DNA of 64,000 nucleotides from Alphaproteobacteria bacterium (lineage in GTDB: Bacteria > Pseudomonadota > Alphaproteobacteria > CALKHQ01), in assembly GCA_965227515.1 (NCBI GenBank), contig CBDDFZ010000001.1, positions 3,584,001 through 3,648,000 on the forward strand. Direction: 5' to 3'. The translations under genes were made by a program, and so were the position numbers. The notes under the pieces are model-generated. The model was given only the letters and a program-made list of their open reading frames with translations. It was not told where the DNA came from and did not search any database. Positions 22,727 through 41,868 of this stretch are shown here, piece by piece; the stretch's first letter is position 1; every line of letters begins with the position of its first letter.

Positions 22727-23764
22727 CTAGCCCTTGCGCGCCTCGGCGGTGGCGTCCAGGATCGCGGTGGTCATCACGTCATCCACCGTCGGCACGTCGC
22801 CGCTGAACTGCTCCAACGCGGCATAGGTGTCGATCTGGGCCCGCCAGTTGGCCGGGTCCATCACACCCCAGCCGCCGGCATCGGTGGCATCGCCGAAGCT
22901 GAAGCCGATCACCGGGCCGACCGCTTGCAACTCGGAATCGCGGTCCAGGTTCGGGAACATCGCGACCAGCAGGTCGACCGCCTCTTCCTGGTTGTCGCGG
23001 GCGTATTGCCAGCCGCGCGCCGAACCGCGGATGAAGCCGGCCAGCACGTCGCCGTGCTCTTCGAGCATGTCGTCGGTGCTGAAATAGACATTGGCGTAGA
23101 GCTGGATGCCGGCGTCCCACAGCATCATGTCGACCCGGTCCTCGCCGAGCACGCTGAGCGCGCCGACATTGGTCTGCCAGCCGGTGACGGCGGCGACCTG
23201 GCCGGTCACGAGCTGGTTCATGTCGCTGCCCATGGGAATGACCTCGACATCGTCCTCGCTGATACCGTTGGCGGCCAACAGCGCGCGCAACAGGATTTCG
23301 GCGGTCGGCTGGGTCGCGATGGTCTGGCCGACCATGTCGGCGGGCTCGCGAATCGGGTTGCCCTCAAGCGAGAAGTACGTGAACGGGTGCTTCTGGTAGC
23401 CGGCGGCAATCGCCTTGATCGGAATGCCGGCGGAGCGCGCCAGCATCAGCGCCGGGCTGGACGAGGTCTGGCCGCCTTCCTTGGCGCCGGAACCGACGGC
23501 GGCGACACCGTCCACGTTCGGCCCGCCGGGGGTGATGGAAAGCTCGACGCCCTCCTCCGCGTAGAAGCCCTTGGCAATGCCGACCACTTCGCCGATCACG
23601 CCGTTACTGGCCAGCCAGCCAAGCTGCAGGTCGACCTCGGCCATGTCCTGGGCACGGGCGCCCACGGTCACCAGGCTGGCGACCGATGCCGGCATTGCGC
23701 CGGCCAAACCTGCGCTGCCAAGACCCTTCAGGACATTGCGGCGATGCGTACGCGTCTTCAACAT
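22727..23764 (-). CDS. NMT1/THI5-like ABC substrate-binding protein with Tat signal
   Basis: HRRNVLK; LQLGW, KGFYAEEGVEL, PGGP. Confidence 0.88.
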   Translation of the reverse strand: MLKTRTHRRNVLKGLGSAGLAGAMPASVASLVTVGARAQDMAEVDLQLGWLASNGVIGEVVGIAKGFYAEEGVELSITPGGPNVDGVAAVGSGAKEGGQTSSSPALMLARSAGIPIKAIAAGYQKHPFTYFSLEGNPIREPADMVGQTIATQPTAEILLRALLAANGISEDDVEVIPMGSDMNQLVTGQVAAVTGWQTNVGALSVLGEDRVDMMLWDAGIQLYANVYFSTDDMLEEHGDVLAGFIRGSARGWQYARDNQEEAVDLLVAMFPNLDRDSELQAVGPVIGFSFGDATDAGGWGVMDPANWRAQIDTYAALEQFSGDVPTVDDVMTTAILDATAEARKG

Positions 23765-24079
23765 CTCAACCCCCTGCGATGTGCGTTGGTCCGACGCACC
23801 GGGCGTGCGCCGAACGCGTGCTCACGATGTGCGCGCAAGGTTAGGCGCGTTTTGCGTTGCGGAGATAGCAGCAAGTTTCGGCATCCCCGTTGCTCTTTTG
23901 GCAACGCAAATTCAAGAACGGGCGCGAACGCCCAAATTGCGTCACCGATCCTCCGCATCGCCGGCCAACTGCGCGTCCATGGTCCCGTCAACGAGGACGC
24001 GGCACGACGCGCGACGGCGGGCAATATGCTATTGCTGAGCGAATGAACCGGAGAAACTGAGAGCGATTCAGGAGGTTCC

Positions 24080-24967
24080 ATGGACAGACGCGATTTCATG
24101 GCAGGGACTGCCGCAGCCATTGCGGCGGGCAGCGTTGCCCTGCCCGTGGGCGCGACTCAGGAGACGACGGTTCCGCAGCCGTACGACTGGAACGCCTATC
24201 CGCCGATGGCGCCCGGCCAGCGCGCCGAATACATCGAATGGATGGTCGAGAATCGTGGCGAGGACCCGTACTACCTGGGCCTGCACTGGGACCGTTATCA
24301 GGTGCTGGTCAACAACCGCGACCTGCTGGACGACCGCAACAAACGCGCCTTCCTGATGCTGCCGCGCGAGGAGTTCTGCCTGGAGCGCAATTTGAGCCGC
24401 GCCTATGAGCACGCCTTCCTCGACATCGGCTATGGGGTCACCATCTCCGGCCCGCACCTGGTCGGCCGTATGACCACCTCCATCGACGTCCAGTTCGGCG
24501 AGAAGGTGCTGGAGGTCGGCACCGGCTCCGGCTACCAGTCCGCCTACCTGGCCAATTTGACCGACAAGGTGTGGACCATCGAGATCATCGCCCCGCTGGC
24601 CGAGCGCACGCGCGGCGTCCACGACAACCTGATCGCCCGGGGCTACACCGAATACCAGGCGATCTCATCGAAGAACGCCGACGGCTATTATGGGTGGGAG
24701 GACGCAGGCCCTTTCGACAAGATCATCGTGACCTGCGGCATCGACCATGTGCCGCCGCCGCTGCTGCAACAGCTCAAGGTCGGCGGCATCATGGTGATCC
24801 CGGTCGGGCCGCCCGGCGCCCACCACGTGCTCAAGATCATCAAGGAACAGGCCGAGGACGGCACCGTCCGGGTCAATCGCACCGACATCTATGGCGGGCG
24901 CGTCGTGCCGTTCGTGCCCTTCACCAAGCTGGAGGGCGACGAGATCGTCGGCGTCCACCACCAGTAG
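24080..24967 (+). CDS. pcm: Protein-L-isoaspartate O-methyltransferase homolog with Tat signal, copy 1
   Basis: DRRDFM Tat signal; TISGP, VLEVGTGSGYQSA, GPFDKIIVT, LLQQLKVGGIMVIPVG, PFVPF. Confidence 0.85.
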   Translation: MDRRDFMAGTAAAIAAGSVALPVGATQETTVPQPYDWNAYPPMAPGQRAEYIEWMVENRGEDPYYLGLHWDRYQVLVNNRDLLDDRNKRAFLMLPREEFCLERNLSRAYEHAFLDIGYGVTISGPHLVGRMTTSIDVQFGEKVLEVGTGSGYQSAYLANLTDKVWTIEIIAPLAERTRGVHDNLIARGYTEYQAISSKNADGYYGWEDAGPFDKIIVTCGIDHVPPPLLQQLKVGGIMVIPVGPPGAHHVLKIIKEQAEDGTVRVNRTDIYGGRVVPFVPFTKLEGDEIVGVHHQ

Positions 24968-25057
24968 ACAACTTACCGCCCGCAACAGAGGAATGCTTTC
25001 CTTTGCGCCCGGCGCGATGCGATGTTACGCGCAGCGGACTCAGAGTCGGAGGATACC

Positions 25058-25942
25058 GTGAAAAGACGAGACTTCATGGCGGGTACTGCCGCCGTCGCCG
25101 CGGGCAGTATGGCCCTGCCCGGACTTGCCAGCGCGGAGACGTCCGTTCCGCTCCCGTACAATTGGGAAGCCTATCCGCCGATGGAGCTGGGCCAGCGCGC
25201 CGAATACATCGAGTGGATGGCGCAGTATCGCGGTGAGGACCCGCACTTCCTGGGCCTGCATTGGGACCGCTACGAGCACCTGATCGGTCACCGCGACTTG
25301 CTGGACGACCGCACCAGGCGGGCCTTTCTGATGACGCCGCGCGAGGAATTCTGCCTGGAGCGCAACCTTGGCCGCGTCTATGACCGCGCTTTCCTCGACA
25401 TCGGCTGGGGCGTGACCATTTCCGGCCCGAATCTGGTCGGCCGGATGACCAGCTCGATCAAGGTCGACTTCGGCGAGAAGGTGCTGGAGGTCGGCACCGG
25501 CTCCGGCTACCAGTCGGCCATGCTGTCCAACCTGACCGACAAGGTGTGGACCATCGAGATCATCGCGCCGCTGGCCGAGCGCACGCGCGGCATCTACGAC
25601 GCGCTGATCGAGCGCGGCTATACCGAGTACGGCGCCATCACCAGCAAGAACGCCGACGGCTACTATGGCTGGGAAGAGGCCGCCCCGTTCGACAAGATCG
25701 TCGTCACCTGCGGCATCGACCACGTGCCGCCGCCGCTGCTGCAGCAGCTCCGGGTCGGCGGCATCATGGTGATTCCGGTCGGTCCGCCCGGTGGCCACCA
25801 CGTGCTGAAGATCGTCAAGGAACAGGCCGATGACGGTACGGTCCGCGTCGCCCGGTCCGACATCTACGGCGGCAGCATCGTGCCGTTCGTGCCCTTCACC
25901 AAGCTGGAAGGGGACGAAATCGTCGGTGTCCACCACCAGTAG
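25058..25942 (+). CDS. pcm: Protein-L-isoaspartate O-methyltransferase homolog with Tat signal, copy 2
   Basis: GTG start after GGAGG RBS; KRRDFM; near-identical motifs to copy 1. Confidence 0.85.
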   Translation: MKRRDFMAGTAAVAAGSMALPGLASAETSVPLPYNWEAYPPMELGQRAEYIEWMAQYRGEDPHFLGLHWDRYEHLIGHRDLLDDRTRRAFLMTPREEFCLERNLGRVYDRAFLDIGWGVTISGPNLVGRMTSSIKVDFGEKVLEVGTGSGYQSAMLSNLTDKVWTIEIIAPLAERTRGIYDALIERGYTEYGAITSKNADGYYGWEEAAPFDKIVVTCGIDHVPPPLLQQLRVGGIMVIPVGPPGGHHVLKIVKEQADDGTVRVARSDIYGGSIVPFVPFTKLEGDEIVGVHHQ

Positions 25943-25999
25943 GCACCTCGACCTGTCGATGCCGGTGCGCCCGCCGCGACGCGCCGGACGGGGCACCGC

Positions 26000-28675
26000 A
26001 TGACCACTCTTGCGGCCGCGAGCGAGCGGTACATCAGCACGCCGCGGCCGTCGCTCCTGCTCTATCTCGCCATGGGCCTCGTCGCCGGGGCCGTCATTGC
26101 GTACCAGATTTTCATCATGCGGGTCTTCGCGGTGGGGAGCTGGACCCACTTCGGCTCGTTCGTCGTCGCCCTCGCCATGCTCGGCTTCGGCCTGGCCAGC
26201 GCGGTGATGGCGCTGTCGAAGGAGTTCTTCCAGCGCCGATGGCGCGGCGTGACGACCGTGTCGGTGGTCCTGTTCGGCCCGCTGATGGCCGGTTGCCAAA
26301 TCGTGGCGCAGCAGTACCCGTTCAACCCGATCTTCCTGGTCTCAGATCCGGCGCAGAGCTGGAACCTGGCAACCAACTTCGTTCTCTATTTCCTACCGTT
26401 CTTCGCCGCCGCCGTCTTCATCGGCACCGTGTTCCTGAAGACCTCCCAGGTCTTCGGACGGGTCTATTTCGCCGACCTGCTGGGTGCCGGGCTTGCCGGC
26501 CTGCTCATCCTCGGCGGCATGTTCCTGTTCCCGCCGGAACACCTGATCGTCGTGCCGCTGACGGTCTGGTTCATCGGCGCACTGTGCTGGCTGAAGTGGA
26601 TCGAAGGCCGCGCGAGCTTTGCATGCCTTATCGTTGCCGCCATTCTTTCGGCCGGGCTGCATGCCGTGCCGCCGCGTGCCGGCGACCTCGTCGATGCGCT
26701 CGGCCTGCGCGACGTGTTCCCGACCGCCGAGAATCTGCCGCACATCGCGGTGTCCGACTACAAGGGCGTTTCCTACGCGCGCAACTTCCCGGACTCCGAG
26801 CGCGTCTATTCGGACATCTCGCCGTTCGGCGACCTGCAAATCTACCAAAGCTCGTACCTGCATTTCGCGCCCGGCCTGTCCGACAACGCGGCTTTCAACA
26901 TCCCGGAGATGCCGTCGAACGCCTTCCTCGGCATGTACATCGACAGCGACGGGCCGAGCGGCATCATGCGCGAGCTGCCGGACGAACAGACGCTCTATTT
27001 CCGTTTCCTGCCGATGTACTACCCGTTCCTGGTCAAGGAGGATCCGTCGGTCTTCGTGGTCCAGTTCGGCGGCGGTATCTCCACGACCGTGGCGCTGCGC
27101 AGCGGTGCGTCGGACGTGACGGTGGCGGAGGCCAACCCTGCCGTGCTGAGCGTGATGGACGCGCCGCTTGTCCGCGACTTCACCGGCGACCTGCTGGGCG
27201 ACCCGCGCCTGACGGTGATCCCCTACGAGGGGCGCCTGTTCCTGGCCTCGACCGACCAGCGCTACGACATCATCGACTTGAGCCTCGCCGACTCCGTCGG
27301 GCTTTCCAGCCCTGGCGGCTTCGCCATCGCGGAGCGCTACGCCTACACCCGCGAGGCGATGAGCACGTATATGCGCGCGCTCGACGACGGGGGCATCCTG
27401 TCGGTCACGGTGTGGAACAAGGAGGAGCCGCCGAAGTCGGTGCTGCGCCTCTATGCCACCATGGCCGAGGCGGCGCGGGAGATCGATCCGGACAGCGTGG
27501 CGCAGTCGTTCTATGTCGCCGCCAACTACCTCTCCACCGCGACCGTGCTCTACAAGCGCGGCGGCTTCACGGACGAGGAGATCGCCATCCTCTCCGACAA
27601 CACCTACGCACTGTCGTTCGACGAGATATTCGCGCCGGGCATCGAGGTCGAGGGCGACGAGGCGCAGCTCCTGTCCGACTACCGGGCGCAGATCTTCGGC
27701 ATCGAAGATGGGGGCGATGGGTCGGGCGCCGATCCGATGGCGTGGATGGAAGACGACAGCGACCCGATGCTGGATCCCGTCTTCGAGGAGGGACCGGTGG
27801 TGATGCCGGCGACCTCGCTCGGCCGTTTCGCCTGGCAGGCGCTGGCCAACGACGACTGGGAGACCTTCTCGAGCACGTACGTTTTCGATGTGGACGGCCT
27901 GGACAACGACCGCCCCTATTTCGCGGCTTACGTGCGCCCGTCCGACCTGCCCGACACCCTCGACCGGCTGGAGCTGTTCCAGGACGACTGGGGCTATCTC
28001 GCGGTCTGGGGCACGCTGATCGTTGCCGGCATCGCGGCCCTGTTCCTGCTGTTGTTCCCGATCGTCTTCGGCTGGCGCGCCATCTTCAGCGCCTATCCCG
28101 GCAAGCTCGGCACCCTGCTCTACTTCGCCTGCCTCGGCTTCGGCTACATGCTGGTCGAGGTCGGGATGATCTCCAAGTTCATCCTGGCGCTGTCGACACC
28201 CACCGTCTCCGCCTCGGTGCTGATCACCGGCATGCTGGTCTTCTCCGGCCTCGGCAGCCTGCTGTCGGAGCGGTTCCTCGACCGCGCCAAGCAGGTGATG
28301 CCCTACGTCTTCGCGACCATCGGCGTGCTGCTGATCGGCTACAGCTTCGTCCTCGACTACGTGCTCGACTGGATCGGCACCTTCCCCTACGTCGTCCGCC
28401 TGGTGCTGTGCCTGGCCCTGATCGCGCCGCCGGCATTGCTGATGGGCTTCCCGCTTGCAACCGCCATGACCTGGCTCGGCCGGCTGGGCAAGGACCATCT
28501 GTTCATCTGGGCCTGGGGCATCAACGGCAGCTTCTCGGTCATCGGCTCGGCGGCGATCCCGGTGCTGGCGGTCAGCTTCGGCCTGACCTCGGTGATCCAG
28601 ATCGCCGGCATCGCCTACCTCATCGCCCTGCCCGCCTTCGTAGCGGTGTTGCTGCCGCTGCGCCGCCCGGCATGA
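26000..28675 (+). CDS. Large polytopic membrane protein with central spermidine-synthase/SAM-methyltransferase-like domain
   Basis: About 7 N-terminal TMs (YFADLLGAG), soluble domain VFVVQFGGG...VAEANP...YDIIDLS...YTREAM, C-terminal TMs (WAWGINGSFSV). Confidence 0.8.
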   Translation: MTTLAAASERYISTPRPSLLLYLAMGLVAGAVIAYQIFIMRVFAVGSWTHFGSFVVALAMLGFGLASAVMALSKEFFQRRWRGVTTVSVVLFGPLMAGCQIVAQQYPFNPIFLVSDPAQSWNLATNFVLYFLPFFAAAVFIGTVFLKTSQVFGRVYFADLLGAGLAGLLILGGMFLFPPEHLIVVPLTVWFIGALCWLKWIEGRASFACLIVAAILSAGLHAVPPRAGDLVDALGLRDVFPTAENLPHIAVSDYKGVSYARNFPDSERVYSDISPFGDLQIYQSSYLHFAPGLSDNAAFNIPEMPSNAFLGMYIDSDGPSGIMRELPDEQTLYFRFLPMYYPFLVKEDPSVFVVQFGGGISTTVALRSGASDVTVAEANPAVLSVMDAPLVRDFTGDLLGDPRLTVIPYEGRLFLASTDQRYDIIDLSLADSVGLSSPGGFAIAERYAYTREAMSTYMRALDDGGILSVTVWNKEEPPKSVLRLYATMAEAAREIDPDSVAQSFYVAANYLSTATVLYKRGGFTDEEIAILSDNTYALSFDEIFAPGIEVEGDEAQLLSDYRAQIFGIEDGGDGSGADPMAWMEDDSDPMLDPVFEEGPVVMPATSLGRFAWQALANDDWETFSSTYVFDVDGLDNDRPYFAAYVRPSDLPDTLDRLELFQDDWGYLAVWGTLIVAGIAALFLLLFPIVFGWRAIFSAYPGKLGTLLYFACLGFGYMLVEVGMISKFILALSTPTVSASVLITGMLVFSGLGSLLSERFLDRAKQVMPYVFATIGVLLIGYSFVLDYVLDWIGTFPYVVRLVLCLALIAPPALLMGFPLATAMTWLGRLGKDHLFIWAWGINGSFSVIGSAAIPVLAVSFGLTSVIQIAGIAYLIALPAFVAVLLPLRRPA

Positions 28676-29625
28676 GGGTGCGCGCAGCGCTGGCCTGCGC
28701 TGCCATGCTGTCCATCACCGCCGCCGATGGGGAGGCCCGGCCCGTGGCCCAAAGCCTGACCGAAATCGTCCCGTTCGACACCTACGCCTTCCCGTACGAC
28801 GGCATCAGCCCGATCACCGACCAGCCGTTCCTGGATGTGATCGAGGATGGGCGGCGCGGCCACACGTCGCCGCGCGCCGGCCTGTTGTGGGAGGACGAGC
28901 ACTATTTCGACCGCAGCACGCTGCTGCACATCCCCGCCGGCTTCGATCCCGACGCGCCGGCGGCCCTGGTCGTGTTCTTCCATGGCAACCAGACCATCCT
29001 GGAGCGCGATGTCGTTGGCCGCCAGCGGGTGCCGGCCCAGCTCGAGGCATCGGGCCTGAACGCGGTGCTGGCGGCACCGCAGCTTGCCTATGACGCGCCC
29101 GATTCCAGCGCCGGCGGCTTCTGGCGGCCGCGCGCGTTCCAGCAATGGCTGAGCGAGGCGTCGGCCCGGCTGGCCGGCATGCTTGGCGACCACGACCTGT
29201 CGTCGCGCATCGACGATCTGCCGATCGTGCTGGTCGCCTACAGCGGCGGCTACAACCCGGCGGCCTATGCGTTGTCGGTCGGCGGCGCGCGCGGGCGCGT
29301 CTGCGGCACGATCCTGCTCGACGGCCCCTATGACGACGAGGAAGCCTTCGTCGACTGGATCGCGCGCCGTGGCGACGGCTTCTTCATCAGCGCCCACTCG
29401 AAGTCCGCCTCGGAAAGCAACGAGGAACTGCGCACCCTGTTGACGGCGCGCGGCATTCCCTTCCAACAGGTCGCGCGCGACCCCCATCCGGCGCCGGGCG
29501 CGGTGACTTTCCTGGACGTCGGCGAGGATGTGCCGCACGAGGATTTCGTGACCCAGGCCTGGCGCCCCAATCCTCTGCAATGGTTCCTGAGCCAGCTTGC
29601 GGATCGGGAGCTCTGCGCCGGATAG
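28672..29625 (+). CDS. Exported alpha/beta-hydrolase-fold protein
   Basis: From MRVRAALA (ATGA overlap); signal-like N-terminus; VVFFHG, AYSGG nucleophile elbow, LLDGPY, late His. Confidence 0.72.
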   Translation: MRVRAALACAAMLSITAADGEARPVAQSLTEIVPFDTYAFPYDGISPITDQPFLDVIEDGRRGHTSPRAGLLWEDEHYFDRSTLLHIPAGFDPDAPAALVVFFHGNQTILERDVVGRQRVPAQLEASGLNAVLAAPQLAYDAPDSSAGGFWRPRAFQQWLSEASARLAGMLGDHDLSSRIDDLPIVLVAYSGGYNPAAYALSVGGARGRVCGTILLDGPYDDEEAFVDWIARRGDGFFISAHSKSASESNEELRTLLTARGIPFQQVARDPHPAPGAVTFLDVGEDVPHEDFVTQAWRPNPLQWFLSQLADRELCAG

Positions 29626-29789: not shown

Positions 29790-31232
29790 ATGGCCGATTC
29801 CAAGCCCGCCGCCCAATCGCCCGATTACGTCGAGCGCTTCGAGGATGCCATCGAGCGCAACCGGCCGCGCATCGCCGACGCCAAGGCGGCGCTGGAGAAG
29901 GCGGGCGTGAAGTACGTGATGGCGTGCTGGATCGACCTGCACGGCCTGCCCAAGACCAAGCCGGTGCCGATGGCGGAGTTCGAGACGGTCTGCCTGGGCA
30001 AGGGGCCGCAGTTCGCCGTTCATTCGGTCTCGTTCGTGCCGGAGCTGTCGCCCGCGGATTCCGACCAGATCGTCGTGCCGGACCTGGACGCGGTCTATGT
30101 CTGCCCGTGGGACACCAGCATGGCGATGGTGTTCTCCGACCTCTACTGGGAGGGCGCGCCCTACAATGTGTGCCCGCGCCAGGCCTTGCGCCGCGCCATG
30201 CGCGATGCCCGTCAGGCCGGGTATGTCGGCTATGCCGGGGTCGAGCCCGAGTTCATCGTGATGCGCCACGACGAGGCCGGCCAGCCGGTGAAGGCGTTCG
30301 ACGACGATCCGCCGGAGGGCGTGCGCCCGCGCCGCCAGGCCTTTGGCTACGACGTGGAATACTCCATCGATTCCATGCCGTTCCTGAAGGACATGATCGA
30401 CATCCTGGGCGGGCTGGGCTGGGACCTGCGCGACGTGGTTGCCGAGGGCGCCTATTCCCAGTTCGAGCTCGATTTCGGTTACACGAACTTGTTGCAGATG
30501 GCCGACCGGCTGGCTTTCCTGCGCATCGTGCTGAAGGAGGTGGCCAAGAAGCACGGCATGTTCGTCACCTTCATGCCGAAGCCGACTACCGGCGACTGGC
30601 GCTCCGGCGCGCACATCAATTTCTCGCTGCGCAGCACCGCCACCCCCGAGGACAATCTGTTCCAGCAGGGCGACGGCTGGTCGCCGCAGGCCGGCCACGC
30701 GGTCGGCGGGTTGATGGCCCATGCCGAGGCGCTGACCGCCATCACCTGCCCGACGGTCAACTCCTATAACGGGCTGGTGCCGCGCGTCGGCGGGTTCGAG
30801 GGCGGCACCGTCACCTGGGCGCCGACCAACATCACCTACGGTCACAATAACCGCTCCGCGCAGTTCCGCCTGCCGCAGAACCGGTTCTGCATCGAGAACC
30901 GGGCGGCGGACATGACCATGAACCCCTACCTGGCCTTCGCCATGACCCTGACATCGGCGATCGAGGGCATCGAGAAGGGCATCGATCCCGGTCCGCCGAC
31001 CGACCGCGACCTCTACGCGATGACACGGGAGGAGTTCGACGAACTCGGTATTCGGCGGCTGCCGCGCAACCTGTTGCAGGCGACGGAGGCACTGGCCACC
31101 GACCCTCTGGCCACGCGGGTGCTGGGGCCGACGATGCTGAAGTCCTACCTCGCCTACAAGAACGACGAGTGGGAGCGTTACCACCAGGCGGTGACCGACT
31201 GGGAGGTGCAGGAGTATCTGAGGCTCTACTGA
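29790..31232 (+). CDS. Glutamine synthetase family protein (gamma-glutamyl-amine ligase; GmaS/GlnT-like)
   Basis: IDLHGLPKTKPVP, GVEPEF, QFELDF, TFMPKP, SGAHINFS, NNRS, IENR, NPYL. Confidence 0.87.
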   Translation: MADSKPAAQSPDYVERFEDAIERNRPRIADAKAALEKAGVKYVMACWIDLHGLPKTKPVPMAEFETVCLGKGPQFAVHSVSFVPELSPADSDQIVVPDLDAVYVCPWDTSMAMVFSDLYWEGAPYNVCPRQALRRAMRDARQAGYVGYAGVEPEFIVMRHDEAGQPVKAFDDDPPEGVRPRRQAFGYDVEYSIDSMPFLKDMIDILGGLGWDLRDVVAEGAYSQFELDFGYTNLLQMADRLAFLRIVLKEVAKKHGMFVTFMPKPTTGDWRSGAHINFSLRSTATPEDNLFQQGDGWSPQAGHAVGGLMAHAEALTAITCPTVNSYNGLVPRVGGFEGGTVTWAPTNITYGHNNRSAQFRLPQNRFCIENRAADMTMNPYLAFAMTLTSAIEGIEKGIDPGPPTDRDLYAMTREEFDELGIRRLPRNLLQATEALATDPLATRVLGPTMLKSYLAYKNDEWERYHQAVTDWEVQEYLRLY

Positions 31233-32251
31233 TGGCCACCGCACCGGACTGCGAGGTCTTCGACCTCGGCGACGTGACGCTGCTGTCGGGCGAGGTGCTG
31301 CGCGGCGCGCGGCTGGCCTACAAGACCTATGGCGCGCTGGCGCCGGACGGCGGCAATGTGGTGGTGCTGCCGACCTTCTACACCGGCAGCCACATGCGCA
31401 ACGAAGGCTTCTTCGGCACCGGGCGCGCCATCGATCCGGCCCGCCACTTCATCGTCTCGATCAATATGTTCGGCAACGGCATCTCGTCGTCGCCGAGCAA
31501 CACGCCGGCCCCGCAGGACAGTCCGCGCTTCCCGCTGGTGACGTTGTGGGACAACATCGCCTGCCAGCACCGGCTGCTGACCGAGCGCCTGGGTGTGGAA
31601 CGCATCGCGCTCGTCGCCGGCTGGTCGATGGCCGGCTGCCAGGCCTATCAGTGGGGCGCGCAATACCCGGATATGGTCGACGCCATCCTGCCGTTCTGCG
31701 CTTCGGCCCGCACCTCGCCGCACAATTGGGTGTTCCTGGAGGGCGTGAAGGCGGCACTGTGCGCGGACCAGGGCTGGAAGGGCGGCGACTACGCTTCGCC
31801 ACCGGTCGCCGGGCTGAAGGCATTCGCGCGCGTCTATGCCGGCTGGGCCTATTCGCAGACCTTCTATCGCGAGGGGCTCTTCCGCCAGCTCGGCTTCGCG
31901 ACGCCGGAAGACCTGCTGGTCGACTGGGAGGACGACCACGCCACGAACTGGGATGCCAACGACCTGCTGGCCAAGCTCGCGACCTGGCAGGCCGGCGATA
32001 TCAGTGCCAATCCGCTTTATGGCGGCGATTTCGAAAAGGCCCTGGGGGCGATCACCGCGCGTGCGATCCTGATGCCGTCGACCACCGACCTCTACTTCCC
32101 GCCTGATGACAATGCCATCGAGGCGCGGCACATGCCCAACGCCGAGTTCCGTCCGTACGCGTCCGACTGGGGCCATTGCGCCGCCAGCCCGGGCAACGAC
32201 CCCGGCTTCACCGCCGCCCTTGAGGCCAATTTGCGCGAGTTGTTGGGATAG
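31232..32251 (+). CDS. MetX-like alpha/beta hydrolase (homoserine O-acetyltransferase family)
   Basis: LAYKTYG, FGNGISSSPSN, GWSMAG nucleophile, DLYFPP, WGH; TGATG coupling to the GS gene. Confidence 0.85.
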   Translation: MATAPDCEVFDLGDVTLLSGEVLRGARLAYKTYGALAPDGGNVVVLPTFYTGSHMRNEGFFGTGRAIDPARHFIVSINMFGNGISSSPSNTPAPQDSPRFPLVTLWDNIACQHRLLTERLGVERIALVAGWSMAGCQAYQWGAQYPDMVDAILPFCASARTSPHNWVFLEGVKAALCADQGWKGGDYASPPVAGLKAFARVYAGWAYSQTFYREGLFRQLGFATPEDLLVDWEDDHATNWDANDLLAKLATWQAGDISANPLYGGDFEKALGAITARAILMPSTTDLYFPPDDNAIEARHMPNAEFRPYASDWGHCAASPGNDPGFTAALEANLRELLG

Positions 32252-32287
32252 GTCCCAAAATCGTCGCCCTCGTCGCCCCACCCCACT

Positions 32288-32443
32288 CGTCGTCCTCGCC
32301 CTTGTGGCGAGGACCCATGGCGGTGCCGGTCCCGATGCGCGAGTTGAAGGTCTCTACCGGCGTTGCCGGACGCGTGCAGCCCTCTGGAACCGATCCCGCA
32401 TGTCGCCCAGGAATGGGTCCTCGCCACAAGGGCGAGGACGACG
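32288..32443. repeat. REP/MITE-like element, copy 2 (perfect 31-bp inverted arms)
   Basis: cgtcgtcctcgcccttgtggcgaggacccat (32288-318) and atgggtcctcgccacaagggcgaggacgacg (32413-43), between convergent genes. Confidence 0.85.
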
Positions 32444-32449
32444 AAGGAG

Positions 32450-32489
32450 TGGATTGCCGCGTCGCGCTAACGCGCTCCTCGCAATGACG
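32450..32489. repeat. Second REP-type half element
   Basis: tggattgccgcgtcgcgctaacgcgctcctcgcaatgacg resembles common alphaproteobacterial intergenic repeats (from recall). Confidence 0.55.
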
Positions 32490-32504
32490 GCGGGAGAGGC
32501 CGCC

Positions 32505-33539
32505 CTACCCCGCGGGGCGCTTGATCGACTGGTCCACCAAGTCGCCGCGATGCTGCGCGATGGCCGCCATCAGCCGCAGCACCACGCACACCGCCAGCCG
32601 GCTGGTAACACCGCTGACATCGAATATCGGCGCCAGTTCCGACACCTCGATCACGCTCGGCCGGCCCCGCTTTCCGAGTGCTGAGGCGATGCGCATCATC
32701 TCGCGCGATTCCAGCCCGCCCGGCTCGGCCGACGTCACCCCCGGCGCCATTGACGCGTCCATGACGTTGAAGTTGAAACTGAGGTACTGCGCGTCCGTGC
32801 CATTCCAGGCCCGGTCCGCCGCCTCCGCCGCGCCGGCGTCGATGCCGTTGTCGATCAGCTCGAACATCGGATGGAAGCGGATGCCGCGCGCCTTGGCCAG
32901 GTCGACCCAGTCCTTCGGGTTCATCGAGTTGCGCGCGCCGATATGGCCGATATTCGCCGCCGCCAGGTTCGGCAGCTCGGAGATGCGGGCGAGCGCGCAT
33001 GTGCTGACGTCGGCCTGACCGGCCCAGTTGTCGGCCAGGTCCAGATTGGCGCCGAAATGGAGGTAGCCCATTTTCTTGTCGGCACCCAGATGATCCGACA
33101 GCGCCTTGGTCGCCGGGATCGAGATCGAGCGGTCGCCGCCGCAAACGATGGGCGTGATGCCGGCTTCCAGCACCTTCCGGACCGCGTCGTAAATGCGCTG
33201 CCGCGACAGGGTCGGGTTCACCTTCGGCATCGACACGTCGCCGCAGTCGACCGCCGCACCCTGCAGGTCGACCTGATATTCGAACCAGTAGGGGAAGTAT
33301 TCCTGGGAGGCGATGCGGAACTCTCGCGGCCCCTCCTCCGAGCCCGGCTTGCCGACATTGCCCTCGTCGAACGGCACGCCGACGAACGCGTACTCGACGC
33401 CGGCCTCCTTCAGCTTCTCGGTGTCCAGCGGCACGTGGTCGGCGCGCAGGAAGGTGAGTTGCGTCGGCGAGCGGTAGTTTTCGGCATCGTCGCCACCCAG
33501 CGGCGAGAAGATGTGGGCATAGGCCTTGGCGGGGTTCAT
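32505..33539 (-). CDS. Ureohydrolase-family non-catalytic subunit (MfmB/DmgB-like)
   Basis: Arginase fold (GVPFD, VDCGD, PGG..SRE) with degenerate metal ligands GGDRS, HFGANLD, SFNFNVMD; N-terminus MNPAKAYAHIFSPLGGD recalls MfmB. Confidence 0.85.
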   Translation of the reverse strand: MNPAKAYAHIFSPLGGDDAENYRSPTQLTFLRADHVPLDTEKLKEAGVEYAFVGVPFDEGNVGKPGSEEGPREFRIASQEYFPYWFEYQVDLQGAAVDCGDVSMPKVNPTLSRQRIYDAVRKVLEAGITPIVCGGDRSISIPATKALSDHLGADKKMGYLHFGANLDLADNWAGQADVSTCALARISELPNLAAANIGHIGARNSMNPKDWVDLAKARGIRFHPMFELIDNGIDAGAAEAADRAWNGTDAQYLSFNFNVMDASMAPGVTSAEPGGLESREMMRIASALGKRGRPSVIEVSELAPIFDVSGVTSRLAVCVVLRLMAAIAQHRGDLVDQSIKRPAG

Positions 33540-33556
33540 GACGTTTCCTTAGATAT

Positions 33557-34615
33557 TCAGGCCGTCTGGCCGGCGGCGCGCAGGGTGGCGGCCCGGCTGC
33601 CGAGATAGTGGTAGACCATGCAGGCGACGAGCTTGATGCTCATCTGGCTGACGTCGAACATCGGGCACAGCTCGGAGATTTCGAGCACATCGGCGCCATA
33701 GGTGCCGGCGATGCGGGCAAGCTGGATCGCCTCGCGCGGCTTGATGCCGAAGCACTCCGGCGCCGTCGTGCCGGGCATGCAGCTCGCGTCCAGAGAATCC
33801 GTGTCCCACGAGCAATAGACCGCGTCGGTACCGTTCCAGGCGATGTCGAAGATCTCGCGGGTGCAGACGTCGACCCCGCGCTCCGCCGCCTCCATCATCG
33901 GGATGATGCGGACCTGATTGTCGACGAAGAAGTCGTGCCAGTCCTTCGGGTTCAGCCCGTTGCGCGAGCCCATGTGGGCCATGTTGGCGCCGTCGCAGTT
34001 CGGCAGGTCGAACGCGCGCGCCGGGCCGGAGCAGTTGGTGTTGCGGATGCCGCCCCAGTCGGGCGCGGAGTCCAGGTGGCAGTCGATGTGCAGGTAGCCG
34101 ATCTTGCCGTCGCGGTGGAAATCGGACAGCGCGTGGGCGGCTGGGATCGGCGCCGAGTGGTCGCCACCGCAGAATATCACCTTGGCACCGCCCTCCAGGC
34201 ACTCGGTGATGTACTGGTGAATGTACTCGTGGCTGCGGTCGTTGTTGCCGGGCACGATCGGCACGTCGCCGCAGTCGACCGGCCGGAAGAACGAGACCAG
34301 GTCGACATCGTACTCGAACATATAGGGGAAGTACTGGGTGGTCGCCTCACGCAGGCCGGCCGGCCCCTGCGAGGTGCCTGCGCGCACCATCTGGCCCTGA
34401 TCCCACGGCACGCCCAGGAAGCAGATCTTCGCCCCCATCTCGCGGATCGCATGGCGGTCGGGCGGGCAATAGGGCGCGTTCATGAAGGTGGCGATGCCGG
34501 CCGACTTGAAGGTGCCGTTGTGCAGCTTGGGCGAGTTGATGTGATCGTCGGCGCCGCGCTGCTGCTGCGGCCCCTGGTGCTGGTGCGGCACGAACTCCCA
34601 GGTGCCAGTGCTCAT
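33557..34615 (-). CDS. Ni-dependent ureohydrolase catalytic subunit (metformin/dimethylguanidine hydrolase MfmA/DmgA-like)
   Basis: Intact ligands GGDHS, DCHLD, WDTDSLD; SPKLHNG..K..GIATFM.APYCPPDRH recalls MfmA; adjacent hypAB. Confidence 0.88.
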   Translation of the reverse strand: MSTGTWEFVPHQHQGPQQQRGADDHINSPKLHNGTFKSAGIATFMNAPYCPPDRHAIREMGAKICFLGVPWDQGQMVRAGTSQGPAGLREATTQYFPYMFEYDVDLVSFFRPVDCGDVPIVPGNNDRSHEYIHQYITECLEGGAKVIFCGGDHSAPIPAAHALSDFHRDGKIGYLHIDCHLDSAPDWGGIRNTNCSGPARAFDLPNCDGANMAHMGSRNGLNPKDWHDFFVDNQVRIIPMMEAAERGVDVCTREIFDIAWNGTDAVYCSWDTDSLDASCMPGTTAPECFGIKPREAIQLARIAGTYGADVLEISELCPMFDVSQMSIKLVACMVYHYLGSRAATLRAAGQTA

Positions 34616-36785: not shown

Positions 36786-38060
36786 TCACTTTATGGCAAT
36801 GCCGTCGGCCTGCACCAGCAGGCCTTCGCGCGGCAGGCCGTAGACACGCACCGGCGTCATCGCCGGCCGGGCATTCGGCGCCACCTGGCGCCACACATCG
36901 CACACGGCGTAGAAGGCGTCGGCCACGTCGGGCGCGCCCTCCTCACCGACCAGGAACAGGTTGAGCTTGACCAGGTCGTCCAGCGACGCGCCGCCCTCGG
37001 CCAGCACCCGCGCCACCCGGTCGAACACGATGCGCGCCTGTCCGGCAACGTCGCCCGGCGCCAGCACATCGCCGCCGCCGCTGAGCGCAACCTGCCCGCC
37101 GACATAGATCTCCTCGCCCGCCGCAAGCCCGTCCGACGCGAAGGCCGGCTGGTAGCGCCCGCCCAGGTCCGCGGCGGACAGCACGTGGCGCGCCGGGTCG
37201 ATCACCGCCATGGCGTCGATCTCCAGCACCAGGCCGGGATAGAGCAGGTCGACCCCGAAGGCGGAGAACACCGGCCCCGGTGCTTTGAAAACCTCGCCCG
37301 ACACGTCCAGGATCGATGGCAGATAGCCGGTCGCCGGATCGCCGCCCTGCGATTGCTTGAAGCAGATCTTCACCCGCACGACGTCGTCCAGCGTGCCGCC
37401 GGCATCGACGACCACCTGCTCGATGAAGCGATAGATATTGCGGGTCTGGGTCACCACGTCGTCGACCGCCACCGACCGGCCCTTCTCGTCGGCCGAGATC
37501 TGGCCGCCGACGAAGATCTGGTTGCCGGTGCGCCACCCCTGGGAAAGCGGCACCGCGATGCTCCAGTCCCAGCTTCCGTCGGGCATGATGCGCTGGCGGG
37601 TGCGCCGTGCCCCGCCGCGCAGCGCTACCCCTTCGATCTGGATCAACTGGCCGGCATAGGGCATGCCCTTGATCCGCACCGCGGTCGCCGCCGGGCCGGG
37701 ATCGGGGAAGTACTCCAGACGGACGGCGGTCATGTCCTCCCAGTACTTGGTGGCGTCGGCATCGTCGCCCTCGAAGACGTAGTAGGTGTTCAGGCGCGCC
37801 AGATCGGCCATCTCCAGGCCCGACTGCGCCAGGGTCGCCTTCATGTTCTCGAACACATTGCGGGTCTGGGCGGCGATGTCGCCGGCATCTTTCACCGAAC
37901 CGTCGGCATTCAGGGTCTGCTGCCCGCTGACGAAGACCTGGTCGCCGATCTCCACCGACTGCGCGAACGGCACGGGCCGCGCCCAAGCCCAAACGCCGCC
38001 ATTGTCGGCGTTGGCGGTTCGCGGCGTCGCATCGCCGGGGTGCGGGACAGGCTGGCTCAT
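36786..38060 (-). CDS. Triple-domain Rid (YjgF/YER057c/UK114) family protein
   Basis: Three repeats: VFVSGQ/IFVGGQ/IYVGGQ ... IQIEGVA/LEIDAMA/VQADGIA. Confidence 0.85.
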   Translation of the reverse strand: MSQPVPHPGDATPRTANADNGGVWAWARPVPFAQSVEIGDQVFVSGQQTLNADGSVKDAGDIAAQTRNVFENMKATLAQSGLEMADLARLNTYYVFEGDDADATKYWEDMTAVRLEYFPDPGPAATAVRIKGMPYAGQLIQIEGVALRGGARRTRQRIMPDGSWDWSIAVPLSQGWRTGNQIFVGGQISADEKGRSVAVDDVVTQTRNIYRFIEQVVVDAGGTLDDVVRVKICFKQSQGGDPATGYLPSILDVSGEVFKAPGPVFSAFGVDLLYPGLVLEIDAMAVIDPARHVLSAADLGGRYQPAFASDGLAAGEEIYVGGQVALSGGGDVLAPGDVAGQARIVFDRVARVLAEGGASLDDLVKLNLFLVGEEGAPDVADAFYAVCDVWRQVAPNARPAMTPVRVYGLPREGLLVQADGIAIK

Positions 38061-38109: not shown

Positions 38110-39096
38110 TCAGCCGGCAACGGCCAGGCCGCGGTGATACTGCTCCAGGGCAGCGATCGCCTCCTCGGCCGCGCCGTCGCTTTCCGGCAGAGCACCGCAG
38201 TAGGTCTGGATGGCCTTCGCGGCCAGCGGCTTCCATTTCTCGATCCAGTCGCGCATCGCGGCACGGCTCGCCTCGTTGCCGGCGGCGAACTCCACCAGTG
38301 CCGCGCTCCACCGGCGCGACCGCTCGGCATCGCGCAACTGGTTGTCGGCCAGCATCGCCAGCAGCGGGTCGCGGAAGCGCCGCGCCGTCTTGCCGAGCTG
38401 GCGCAGGCATTCGTCGGCGGCCGGCTTGGCGACCACGTTCAGCGCAATGAAGTTTTCGCCCCAGTCGTAGGTGGCCAGCGTGCGCTCGATCAGTTCGCGC
38501 AGGCCCTGCCACGCCGGGTGCTCTTCCCAGTGCCGGCGCTCGTCCTTGCCGAAGCCGCGGTCGGGATGCGCGATCCGAAGCTCGCGGGTGCGATAGGCCA
38601 TGCGCGACAGCCAGCGGAACTCGTCGCCCTCCTGGAACCCGGCGGCCGCCGTGATGGTGCTGGCGGGCGCAATCTGCAGGATGTAGGCGGCGCCCATCTG
38701 CAACGCCATCTGCAGGTAGCGGCGCGGCGTGTAGAGGGATTCCAGCACGCCCAGCCAGTCGTCGGCCAACTCGCTGTCGTAGCCCTGCTCGTTGTGCTCG
38801 TCGAGCAGGCCGTCGATGTATTCCTCCTGGCCGTCCTGGGTGCGGGTATAGACACGGTAGACTAGCTCGTCCGGGTCGCGGAACCCCTCCCAGTCGTCAT
38901 GCTGCAGCGGGCTCTCGGCGACGTTCTTCTGGTACCAGGTATTCATATCCAGCAACGGCGCCGGCGACAGCTCATAGGCCTGGTCGGGGTAGCGGTTGCG
39001 GGTCTGCAGGTTGGTGGTGACGATCTCGTACTCGCTGGGACGGCGGCGGTTCTTCGCCAGCCCGCTCCAGGTCTTCATGCCGGTCAGTTCAACCAT
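38110..39096 (-). CDS. Soluble di-iron monooxygenase hydroxylase beta subunit (TmoE/IsoE-like)
   Basis: KTWS.LA..RRRPSEYEIVT, WEGFRDPDELVYR.Y...QDGQE, YDWGE.F..LN. Confidence 0.92.
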   Translation of the reverse strand: MVELTGMKTWSGLAKNRRRPSEYEIVTTNLQTRNRYPDQAYELSPAPLLDMNTWYQKNVAESPLQHDDWEGFRDPDELVYRVYTRTQDGQEEYIDGLLDEHNEQGYDSELADDWLGVLESLYTPRRYLQMALQMGAAYILQIAPASTITAAAGFQEGDEFRWLSRMAYRTRELRIAHPDRGFGKDERRHWEEHPAWQGLRELIERTLATYDWGENFIALNVVAKPAADECLRQLGKTARRFRDPLLAMLADNQLRDAERSRRWSAALVEFAAGNEASRAAMRDWIEKWKPLAAKAIQTYCGALPESDGAAEEAIAALEQYHRGLAVAG

Positions 39097-39126
39097 TTCC
39101 CCACCCTTCCCGCTTGCGTCCGAAAC

Positions 39127-39426
39127 CTACTTCGCCAAGAAGCGCATCGCTTCGTTGTCGACGCGGATGAACCCCTCGAACGAGGGCATGAACACTTCGA
39201 TGTCGCCACGCGTCACCGCACGGCCCAGCATGTCGCCGACCGTGTCGAAGCGCACCACGCACTCGCCGCGCACCTTGATACGCAGGTAGGAGGCGTGCTC
39301 CTCCACCTGGATCTCGCGGCCCTGGTTGTCTTCCTCGATCGCCTCGACCACGGCGTCGGCCATGTCGCCGGTGCGCATCACCGGGCCGACGAAGCGGTCC
39401 TCCTCAGCTCCAGTTCCGTCTGGCAT
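39127..39426 (-). CDS. Monooxygenase effector/coupling protein (MmoB/DmpM/TmoD family)
   Basis: VGPVMR.GD.ADAVVEAIEEDN, YLRI, MPSFEGFI. Confidence 0.9.
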   Translation of the reverse strand: MPDGTGAEEDRFVGPVMRTGDMADAVVEAIEEDNQGREIQVEEHASYLRIKVRGECVVRFDTVGDMLGRAVTRGDIEVFMPSFEGFIRVDNEAMRFLAK

Positions 39427-39465
39427 CGCCCCCTCCTCTCGCGGCCCGGCCGCCAACCGCCGCGT

Positions 39466-39804
39466 TCAGCCCACGCCGGCCGGTGTCAGCACCACCTTGA
39501 CCTCGCCGTCCTCGACCTTGACCGGATAGCTGGTCAGCGCCACGCCGGTCGGGTTCACGCCCTTGCCGGTCAGCACGTCGAACTCCCACATATGCGCCAG
39601 GCACGTCAGCACGCAGCCGTCCAAATCGCCCTCGGCCAGCGACTGGTCCTGGTGCGGGCAGCGCGGATGGAACGCGCGCACCTCACCGCCCGGCGCGTGC
39701 ACGATCAGCACGTCGGTGCCGGCGACCGTGAACAGCTCCATCTCGCCTTCCCAGATATCGTCCAGGCTGCAAACGGTCTGGTATTCCATGCCGGTCCCGC
39801 TCAA
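39466..39804 (-). CDS. Rieske [2Fe-2S] ferredoxin (TmoC-like)
   Basis: VCSLDDIWEGEM, CPHQ...CLAHMWEFD, GVNP. Confidence 0.92.
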   Translation of the reverse strand: MSGTGMEYQTVCSLDDIWEGEMELFTVAGTDVLIVHAPGGEVRAFHPRCPHQDQSLAEGDLDGCVLTCLAHMWEFDVLTGKGVNPTGVALTSYPVKVEDGEVKVVLTPAGVG

Positions 39805-40061
39805 GCTTCCGGATAGATTTCGATGGCTTCCATCTCGGCCAGCCCGGCGCCGGACACGGTAGCATCGTCGGCCAGCGGCGCGTCGGCGCCCTGCACCTTC
39901 ACTTTCAGCCTGGTGCCATCCGGGAACGGCGCCACCAGCACGCTGGCCACCTGATCCAGCGCCTTCTCAACCACGGTCGTCATGGGGTCGCCATCGTCGA
40001 CCACCAGCACCTTGTAGCCGTAGTCGCCGTGCAGGTAGCAGGCGAGCGGGAAGTCTGCCAT
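39801..40061 (-). CDS. Monooxygenase gamma subunit (TmoB-like)
   Basis: MADFPL...GDY..KVLVVD..D.M; 86 aa; position between alpha and Rieske genes. Confidence 0.8.
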   Translation of the reverse strand: MADFPLACYLHGDYGYKVLVVDDGDPMTTVVEKALDQVASVLVAPFPDGTRLKVKVQGADAPLADDATVSGAGLAEMEAIEIYPEA

Positions 40062-40072
40062 GACGCCGTCCG

Positions 40073-41572: not shown

Positions 41573-41601
41573 GGCCCCATCTCCTCCACTGGCAGTGCGG
41601 T

Positions 41602-41868
41602 CCACGAATTTCGTGGCGAACCTGGCCAGTGAAGCACGAATTCCTCCGCACTGCCAAGCGCGCTTGTGAGAAATTCGCGATATTGCCCAAAAATGCCGCA
41701 CAATTCGTGGCTGGCGTGCAGGCCATGCCGCATTCGCAGGCAGTCAGGCGATCCGGCTTGTGCCAGTTCGAGGGTTGACAAGGACTTCATTGACGAAATT
41801 CGTGCGGATGAATACCGTGGGTACCGCAAACGCTCAGCAGTTCAGCTAGTTTGCATCGAAATTCGTGA
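41602..41868. promoter_or_regulatory. Phased array of putative Lrp/AsnC operator sites (CACGAA-W-TTCGTG) in the divergent promoter region
   Basis: Sites centred at 41609 (perfect palindrome), 41641, 41673, 41703, 41798, 41861; half-site at 41766; spacing ~31-32 bp or multiples. Confidence 0.72.

Follow-up and report, generated by a model that had tools for sequence, protein, structure and literature searches.

We analysed a 64,000-nt stretch of an alphaproteobacterial genome (the window), and all coordinates given are positions in it. Four consecutive genes, all on the + strand, encode two paralogs of protein-L-isoaspartate O-methyltransferase (PIMT1 and PIMT2), a polytopic membrane protein of an unnamed family (MEMB) and a hydrolase that is predicted to be exported (HYD). 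The features of the locus are as follows.

24071..24076, + strand: Shine-Dalgarno-like AGGAGG, read from the sequence, ending 3 nt before the ATG of PIMT1 at 24080
24080..24967, + strand: PIMT1, 295 aa from an ATG start; a twin-arginine leader precedes an N-terminal extension specific to the family (Pfam PCMT)
24080..24154, + strand: predicted twin-arginine translocation (Tat) leader of PIMT1, MDRRDFMAGTAAAIAAGSVALPVGA, with cleavage after V-G-A inferred by eye
25058..25942, + strand: PIMT2, 294 aa, GTG start, product beginning MKRRDFM, with GGAGGA at 25048-25053
25058..25135, + strand: predicted Tat leader of PIMT2, MKRRDFMAGTAAVAAGSMALPGLASA, with inferred cleavage after A-S-A
26000..28675, + strand: MEMB, 891-aa polytopic membrane protein with about 14 hydrophobic helices
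26672..27985, + strand: soluble domain in the middle of MEMB (residues ~225-662) with a spermidine-synthase fold; predicted to lie in the periplasm
28672..29625, + strand: HYD, 317 aa, serine alpha/beta-hydrolase, esterase-like, predicted exported

With a third-position G+C of 0.87-0.91, all four genes bear the coding signature of their genome (66% G+C). The longest open reading frame (ORF) of PIMT2 opens at 25022, but GTG 25058 was taken as the start because GGAGGA sits 4 nt upstream of it and the resulting product is co-linear with PIMT1. No Rfam family was matched at gathering score anywhere in the window, and none at E<=1 between 23600 and 24200, so neither a riboswitch nor an RNA leader was found before PIMT1; the 315-nt spacer upstream of PIMT1 likewise matched no Rfam RNA family. 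A scan for promoters and terminators gave counts not above those of shuffled sequences.

Two PIMT paralogs with predicted export leaders

PIMT1 and PIMT2 (METHYLTRANSFERASES) matched Pfam PCMT with 139.3 and 133.8 bits, respectively (E 2e-40 and 9e-39; cut-off 20.3), and solved PIMT structures (4o29, 4l7v and 3lbf) matched at E 1.7e-31 to 3e-30. The initial annotation of this DNA had described two near-identical Pcm-like proteins; the Pcm-like character stands, but with 81% identity (240/295) the two are not near-identical. In an alignment of 50 family members, T121-I122-S123, the glycines G147, G149 and G151 of the GTGSG motif for S-adenosylmethionine (SAM), and D201-G202 were all invariant, which agrees with the intact SAM motifs noted initially, and the same catalytic and SAM residues were at least 95% conserved in 84 genome-derived PIMT sequences. 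T121-I122-S123 aligns with the TIS of solved PIMTs. As described in PMC11522691, the Thr and Ser of PIMT hydrogen-bond the isoaspartyl (isoAsp) residue and the Asp-Gly pair hydrogen-bonds SAM, and the non-catalytic PIMT of complex I has lost all four residues. Given that the isoAsp- and SAM-contacting residues are invariant in the window family, its PIMT fold is very probably still an enzyme, and the repurposing of this fold as a binding protein, which the initial annotation had raised as an alternative, is disfavoured by the invariant Thr-Ile-Ser and Asp-Gly.

Judged from their sequences, the window PIMTs form a distinct PIMT subfamily. The catalytic domain, SAM motif I, Asp-Gly and Thr-Ile-Ser are those of canonical cytoplasmic Pcm/PIMT (PF01135, EC 2.1.1.77), whose gene usually lies in the context surE-pcm-nlpD. 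Unlike canonical Pcm, the window proteins have a twin-arginine leader, an extension of about 50 residues after it (VPxPYxWD..PP...W..NRGEDP), a C-terminal extension, the variants GVTISGP and VTCGIDH, and a membrane partner. Scores against the NCBIfam equivalogs fell below cut-off for PIMT1 and PIMT2, both in NF001453 (157.2 and 151.0; cut-off 188) and in TIGR00080 (137.2 and 127.6; cut-off 159.05). Because of these scores and the family-specific changes, the substrate of the PIMTs may differ from isoAsp. Weak PIMT matches were also obtained with TIGR04188 (ATP-grasp maturase; 95-100 bits, cut-off 380) and TIGR04364 (FxLD; 82-94 bits, cut-off 320). A peptide natural-product context was considered and rejected, as no precursor peptide, ATP-grasp or lanthipeptide genes lie nearby.

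The best 120 database clusters listed for PIMT share 67-89% identity with it, are mostly about 290 aa long (range 265-382) and are named in their sources solely "protein-L-isoaspartate O-methyltransferase". Yin and Harwood reportedly described divergent PIMTs in Rhodopseudomonas palustris in 2019, which may bear on the Tat-PIMT family. In a quick family tree, PIMT1 and PIMT2 were sisters inside a Bauldia (Kaistiaceae) clade (support as SH-aLRT, 93), and since they pair in this way their duplication is recent. Tandem PIMT pairs are also present in two other loci, L041 and L050 (9058-10870), and arose independently of the window pair; the upstream copies of L041 and L050 group together in the tree, apart from their downstream copies.

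Tat and Sec leaders were judged from motif, curated profiles and reading by eye, and cleavage sites were read by eye. The PIMT leaders start with M-D/K-R-R-D-F-M-A-G, followed by an Ala/Gly-rich stretch and then V-G-A in PIMT1 or A-S-A in PIMT2. The Tat consensus is given as S/T-R-R-x-F-L-K in the abstract of PMC3712460. The leaders fit the Tat pattern in having a near-consensus motif, a weakly hydrophobic region and an A-x-A-like site. The twin-arginine leaders of the initial annotation are thereby upheld at the level of the motif: RRDFM is present in both PIMTs, and R3, R4 and F6 were invariant in the 50 aligned family members, with a variable hydrophobic stretch. The curated profiles were borderline: NCBIfam TIGR01409 (Tat) gave 20.2 bits for PIMT1 (cut-off 16.7) with no PIMT2 match listed, and Pfam TAT_signal gave 19.5 for PIMT1 and 16.6 for PIMT2, both under its cut-off of 22.7. 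A start downstream of the leader would speak against export, but ribosome-binding sites precede the leader-encoding starts of both genes.

Leader type was counted in 82 PIMT copies from 80 loci, of which 76 copies had RRx[FLIVMA] no more than 60 residues from the point where the mature protein begins. In L061 this motif lies farther upstream, ahead of an Ala/Pro linker. Three gammaproteobacterial copies carry lysine-type Sec leaders in place of Tat, one sphingomonad copy carries a lipobox in place of the Tat leader, and the leaders of two acidobacterial copies (L072 and L078) fit none of the classes. Sec signal peptides were also found on PIMTs of about 215 aa, otherwise canonical, beside distant MEMB proteins in Microvirga, Phyllobacterium and Paraburkholderia (3/3 read); the Paraburkholderia leader became visible only after the annotated start was shifted upstream. 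By these sequence criteria the PIMT leader is very probably a real, translated and export-directing one, and because the type of export signal has been swapped with export kept, the destination rather than the peptide would be under selection. The initial annotation had pointed to the Tat export of folded, cofactor-loaded proteins. The Sec leaders argue against this as a general mechanism for a SAM-loaded enzyme: Sec exports unfolded chains, and pre-loading with SAM in the cytoplasm therefore cannot be the general SAM route for the exported PIMTs.

Linkage of the genes across genomes

A genome scan with PIMT1, using one genome per species, gave 189 relatives, and the module was scored in the best 80 of the 189 loci by tblastn with the four window proteins. 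MEMB was found in 55 of these 80 loci, directly downstream on the same strand in 54 and divergent in one, with a PIMT-MEMB spacing of mostly 26-292 nt between hit ends. In the 66 informative loci, those with at least 4.5 kb of DNA downstream of the PIMT, MEMB came directly after the PIMT in 49, of which 37 also had HYD. The prospect that the genes would not co-occur in other genomes, raised in the initial annotation, is thus not borne out, and the PIMT-MEMB linkage is beyond chance. Cultured species that carry the module are Prosthecomicrobium hirschii (L018), Dongia sedimenti (L020), Terripilifer ovatus (L019), Enterovirga rhinocerotis (L037) and Rhizobium jaguaris. HYD without MEMB was never seen in the loci examined; where HYD is absent, the gene that follows runs convergently. 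PIMT distances correlate with MEMB distances (r 0.72, a value that none of 999 permutations reached), a correlation confounded by shared ancestry.

Plasmid records extend the pairing. PIMT is adjacent in at least 9 of 11 records that carry a full-length MEMB homolog, the Legionella record being without one. MEMB identity is about 29-30% in eight of the nine PIMT-linked records (alpha- and betaproteobacteria) and 54% in R. jaguaris. Because the distant plasmid pairs (~29% MEMB identity) also have Sec-leader PIMTs, the sequences indicate that the pairing of an exported PIMT with MEMB is old and that the Tat leader and the extensions came later, in the window clade.

The other 25 of the 80 loci lacked MEMB, and in six of these the sequence ends no more than 1 kb downstream. 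The other orphan PIMTs belong mostly to two well-supported clades, mainly of Xanthobacteraceae and Hyphomicrobiaceae. No neighbour is common to the 19 loci without MEMB; small orphan subgroups share neighbours, namely an L,D-transpeptidase (a four-locus subgroup), MoaA, a tripartite ATP-independent periplasmic (TRAP) permease and Cu/Zn superoxide dismutase. One seemingly conserved downstream "gene" of orphan loci was rejected as a wrong-frame ORF. A linked and an orphan PIMT copy can occur in the same metagenome-assembled genome, for example L013 with L048 and L028 with L049.

Several records stood out in their own right. A plasmid of Mesorhizobium sp. INR15 (L087, 5917-8904) carries an orphan Tat-type PIMT, after which come a small SAM methyltransferase of class I and a membrane glycosyltransferase of family GT87, with insertion sequences around them. 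The PIMT genes of L077 (labelled Nakamurella) and L044 (Vulcanimicrobiota) fall inside the Beijerinckiaceae clade and that of L022 (Binatia) inside the Dongiaceae clade, which suggests that these contigs were mis-binned or that the PIMT was recently transferred.

The partner proteins MEMB and HYD

MEMB has a very large family: a cut-off of E<=1e-3 gives 8327 representative clusters and one of E<=1e-30 still gives 2057, and where names are given to these relatives they are "hypothetical", "spermidine synthase" or "SAM-dependent methyltransferase". No Pfam family was found for MEMB; its membrane domain had no Pfam match in 30 homologs, and an atlas search with it returned its own kind alone. Pfam Spermine_synth was matched at E<=0.05 by 21 of 30 distant MEMB homologs, and the family profile matched SpeE structures at E 1e-14. 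The AlphaFold (AF2) models of MEMB and HYD were compared by Foldseek. In the MEMB model (pLDDT 90.8, pTM 0.92), seven helices (19-233) are followed by beta and Rossmann domains (~256-545), a helical or disordered insert and a second set of helices (661-887). Its top Foldseek matches were all SpeE, with TM-scores of 0.54-0.60 (target-normalised) over about 270-300 columns. Profile and Foldseek therefore agree with the initial view of an 891-aa polytopic protein with a spermidine-synthase-like domain. No repeat was detected between the two helix bundles (BLAST; hhalign probability 0.45%).

With SpeE and the membrane-bound spermidine synthases MEMB shares the fold, including the N-terminal beta domain, and the glycine-rich loop, DPR, YD and LYT-E motifs. 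Unlike in SpeE, the domain is inserted into a membrane protein, with a bundle of about seven helices on either side and a predicted outward orientation. Residues G357, G359, E377, R412, D423, T450 and E452 are at least 90% conserved in the MEMB family and G465 is invariant; the conserved residues align with cofactor-site motifs of SpeE, among them the GxG loop and the acidic residue after strand 2. The Asp residues of the SpeE D-x-x-D-P motif are its catalytic signature. In MEMB the first of them is replaced by Ser428 and the second is kept (D431), and MEMB also failed the SpeE equivalog criterion, with 19.2 bits in PRK00811 (cut-off 260) and 15.1 in PRK03612 (cut-off 472). Because the first Asp is Ser, MEMB is unlikely to be a standard aminopropyltransferase, and from its sequence we expect the domain to bind a nucleoside cofactor without standard aminopropyl transfer.

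Topology was inferred from hydropathy and the positive-inside bias of lysine plus arginine (K+R) in 88 family members. Hydropathy gave 7 + 7 membrane spans, and the loops placed on the cytoplasmic side had a K+R total of 15.5, compared with 3.6 for the short loops placed outside. On the strength of this bias the central domain of MEMB most likely lies on the periplasmic side. The initial annotation had proposed a membrane SAM-fold partner; the SAM-type fold holds, and with the domain predicted in the periplasm MEMB is more likely a second extracytoplasmic user or holder of SAM or decarboxylated SAM than a SAM handler on the cytoplasmic side. One stretch, residues 734-792, is a single helix in the model versus two spans by hydropathy and a charged segment at 757-765. 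A natural MEMB-HYD fusion, P0245 (1162 aa; 35% identity, E 1e-44), has R-R-P and then an extra hydrophobic segment between its MEMB and HYD parts. This segment would fit a cytoplasmic C-terminus of MEMB, because an exported HYD domain must cross the membrane. A word-limited search gave no further MEMB-HYD fusions, and yielded two anchored or lipoprotein-like HYD forms.

HYD had no Pfam, NCBIfam or PDB match at the sequence level and was recognised by fold search alone. Its AF2 model (pLDDT 89.5) has an alpha/beta-hydrolase fold, and the 480 PDB matches at E<=1e-3, as far as listed, are all alpha/beta-hydrolases. The nearest folds are feruloyl esterases and carboxylesterases (best E 2.4e-6; TM-score 0.35-0.47, the best, 0.47, query-normalised), and because these scores are moderate the model places HYD as a divergent member of the group. 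H104-G105-N106, A-Y190-S191-G192-G193-Y194, D217 and H289 are invariant in 30 sequences and contain a candidate Ser/Asp/His triad. A hydrophobic N-terminal segment is present in 34 of 36 HYD orthologs, with some leaders being twin-arginine and some having a lipobox. Together with the overlap of the HYD ATG and the MEMB stop codon (ATGA), this upholds the coupled exported hydrolase of the initial annotation.

A possible periplasmic methylation module

We propose, tentatively and at slightly less than an even chance, as the most economical reading, that the four genes serve carboxyl methylation or isoaspartyl repair in the periplasm and that MEMB renders SAM or its decarboxylated form available there. 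The analyses show how the genes are arranged, their export signals, their conserved linkage, the folds and the conservation of active-site residues; the periplasmic location, the substrate, the supply of cofactor by MEMB and the part played by the esterase are what we infer from these. All three kinds of soluble domain are predicted to be periplasmic, two of them having a fold of the SAM family in which the cofactor site is intact. In the proposed mechanism, the PIMT paralogs would be exported folded to the periplasm through their twin-arginine leaders and would methylate aged envelope proteins as protein-L-isoaspartyl-type O-methyltransferases; alternatively, they could act on another substrate whose free alpha-carboxyl adjoins an iso-peptide bond. 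MEMB, transcribed together with them and made up of some 14 bundled helices, would present its complete spermidine-synthase-type nucleoside-cofactor domain at the outer face and make SAM or decarboxylated SAM usable there. The cofactor may travel through the membrane domain of MEMB, which may in addition be a second transferase drawing on the same supply. HYD, as an exported serine esterase, would cleave the resulting esters or act on the shared substrate in some other way.

Known systems offer partial parallels. MsrPQ carries out periplasmic repair of methionine sulfoxide, with a Tat-exported enzyme and a membrane protein, MsrQ, that passes electrons to it. The likeness to the window module would be one of logic only, an exported repair enzyme with a membrane supplier, with no sequence relationship; MsrQ supplies electrons, and here the commodity would be a methyl donor. 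In CheR/CheB, a methyltransferase and a methyl-ester-removing enzyme make carboxyl methylation reversible. The window module could be compared with it in that a carboxyl methyltransferase is encoded with a hydrolase able to remove methyl esters, but the folds and the compartment are different, no receptor genes are present, and HYD is an alpha/beta-hydrolase and not a CheB. The PIMT of Paracoccus denitrificans complex I (CI-PIMT; PDB 8qby chain t) is, according to PMC11522691, likewise a PIMT paralog of an alphaproteobacterium, one that has become part of a membrane complex. It has lost the isoAsp- and SAM-binding residues and sits at the cytoplasmic arm, whereas the window PIMTs keep these residues and have export leaders.

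Several points weigh against the proposed module. We know of no SAM pool or SAM exporter in the periplasm, and transport by MEMB, like the supply or recycling of SAM that the initial annotation had suggested for it, is hypothetical. The best 50 Foldseek matches of MEMB are all SpeE or methyltransferases and include no membrane fold. The topology of MEMB rests on charge bias, and the helix count of its C-terminal half is unsettled. For isoAsp repair in particular, the family-specific changes of both PIMTs and their sub-equivalog scores mean that the substrate may be a different one. Classical PIMT repair also needs no esterase and leaves HYD unexplained; since an esterase is superfluous for isoaspartyl repair, its presence hints at a stable ester, either a reversible mark or a non-protein substrate. 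In 17 of the 66 informative loci a Tat-PIMT has no MEMB within 10 kb, from which it follows that the PIMT can exist without an adjacent partner. Conversely, MEMB relatives in Legionella and in the Gram-positive Alkalihalophilus have no PIMT neighbour, so that MEMB has a PIMT-independent function. Because such relatives exist, including in a Gram-positive, we think that MEMB is primarily an outward-facing protein that depends on or binds SAM or decarboxylated SAM and obtains this cofactor via its own membrane domain, with the PIMT as its client. In a bolder form, which we consider possible but unlikely, MEMB would be the founder of a large family carrying SAM or decarboxylated SAM through the cytoplasmic membrane to an outward SpeE-type domain; the methyl donor would then be supplied locally outside the cytoplasm, with the PIMTs drawing on it to repair or regulate envelope proteins and HYD erasing the esters.

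The hint of a stable ester leads to a different account, in which the exported PIMT-like enzyme modifies an envelope polymer or a small molecule rather than repairing protein. Its target would be a carboxylate outside proteins whose geometry resembles that of isoAsp, for example the free alpha-carboxyl of gamma-linked D-glutamate or a carboxyl of diaminopimelate in peptidoglycan; an amine or lipid of the envelope, bound by the membrane domain of MEMB, would receive a methyl or aminopropyl group from it, and HYD would reverse or trim the product, making a writer/eraser pair. We regard this as a minority possibility of some substance. The substrate-side changes of the PIMTs and their scores under the equivalog cut-offs are consistent with it, as is an esterase co-transcribed in 37 of the 49 MEMB-linked informative loci, which fits a stable ester in need of enzymatic removal. 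The retention by MEMB of just the second Asp of D-x-x-D-P, which makes a standard aminopropyltransferase improbable, points the same way, and so do the envelope enzymes next to some orphan PIMTs, which are an L,D-transpeptidase in the four-locus subgroup, Cu/Zn superoxide dismutase in a second subgroup and, in Mesorhizobium, a glycosyltransferase of family GT87. But these orphan neighbourhoods differ between subgroups, the analyses indicate no specific substrate, the Thr and Ser that contact isoAsp show the same invariance as in genuine PIMTs, and a periplasmic supply of SAM is needed just as in the proposed module.

That need would vanish if the system served uptake or scavenging, with non-catalytic PIMT-fold binders bringing an adenosyl compound (SAM, S-adenosylhomocysteine or methylthioadenosine) or a polyamine to MEMB as a permease with a periplasmic binding domain of its own. 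Both soluble folds are nucleoside-cofactor binders predicted outside the membrane, and a non-catalytic PIMT fold turned structural subunit is documented in PMC11522691. We nevertheless hold this account to be improbable: the residues lost in the complex-I PIMT are invariant in the window family, the 67-89% identity of the PIMT domain in the 120 listed clusters is tighter than expected of a mere binder, the esterase is left without a role, and the membrane domain of MEMB matches no transporter family (Pfam, 30 homologs; best 50 Foldseek matches). Finally, the leaders might not be export signals at all; the PIMTs would then be cytoplasmic or tethered at the inner face, the SpeE-like domain would be cytoplasmic, and the locus would be an ordinary methylation or polyamine operon. 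The sub-threshold Pfam TAT_signal scores of both PIMTs and the not fully settled helix parity of MEMB leave some room for this, but very little, given the signal-peptide-like pattern of an invariant RR-x-F beside a varying hydrophobic region, the fact that other lineages have Sec-type leaders or a lipobox in the place of the Tat leader, and the ribosome-binding sites before the leader-encoding starts. The partner proteins argue likewise, with K+R totals of 15.5 versus 3.6 in MEMB, family-wide leaders in HYD and, in P0245, a HYD fused behind MEMB via an extra hydrophobic segment.

The genes around the locus are unrelated metabolic genes and are not kept beside the PIMT module in other genomes. 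A NitT/TauT-type ATP-binding cassette (ABC) transporter lies on the opposite strand at the 5' flank, and its NMT1/THI5-type substrate-binding protein (22727-23764, - strand) also opens with a twin-arginine-like leader, MLKTRTHRRNVLKGLG. The 3' flank (29790-34615) has a glutamine-synthetase-like gene and an alpha/beta-hydrolase on the + strand and two adjacent arginase-family paralogs on the - strand, a set that looks like guanidino-compound or polyamine catabolism. Elsewhere in the window, a soluble di-iron monooxygenase cluster (38110-41701, - strand) comprises two Phenol_Hydrox subunits, the larger with YHS, an MmoB/DmpM coupling protein and a Rieske ferredoxin, and its gene content suggests oxidation of an alkene, aromatic compound or alkane. 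A 424-aa protein (36786-38060, - strand) has three tandem Ribonuc_L-PSP (RidA) stretches, an unusual triple-domain arrangement, and a 1053-aa ORF (9371-12532, + strand) has a coding-like composition.

The literature searched gave no description of an exported PIMT, a periplasmic methyltransferase or the MEMB family. The accessible parts of PMC5705917 and PMC11522691 describe none of these three, and the terms isoaspart, methyltransferase and pcm are absent from the accessible part of the alphaproteobacterial Tat paper PMC3305326. At this locus a known family of enzymes is paired with a partner that is new and uncharacterised, and it is predicted in a compartment that is new for it.

To our knowledge, SAM-based protein repair and methylation are treated as cytoplasmic, and we know of no periplasmic methyl-donor supply. 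A conserved and seemingly catalytically intact PIMT with an export signal, together with MEMB, makes SAM chemistry outside the cytoplasm a testable claim. If the bolder form described above is true, the locus would encode the first known system for SAM-dependent methylation of proteins in the periplasm and a counterpart of MsrPQ without redox chemistry, and should MEMB prove to convey SAM through the membrane, the finding would be new in kind. The proposal bears on why the Tat pathway carries a non-redox enzyme, on the function of the very large, uncharacterised MEMB family and on how slow-growing soil bacteria may keep long-lived envelope proteins functional.

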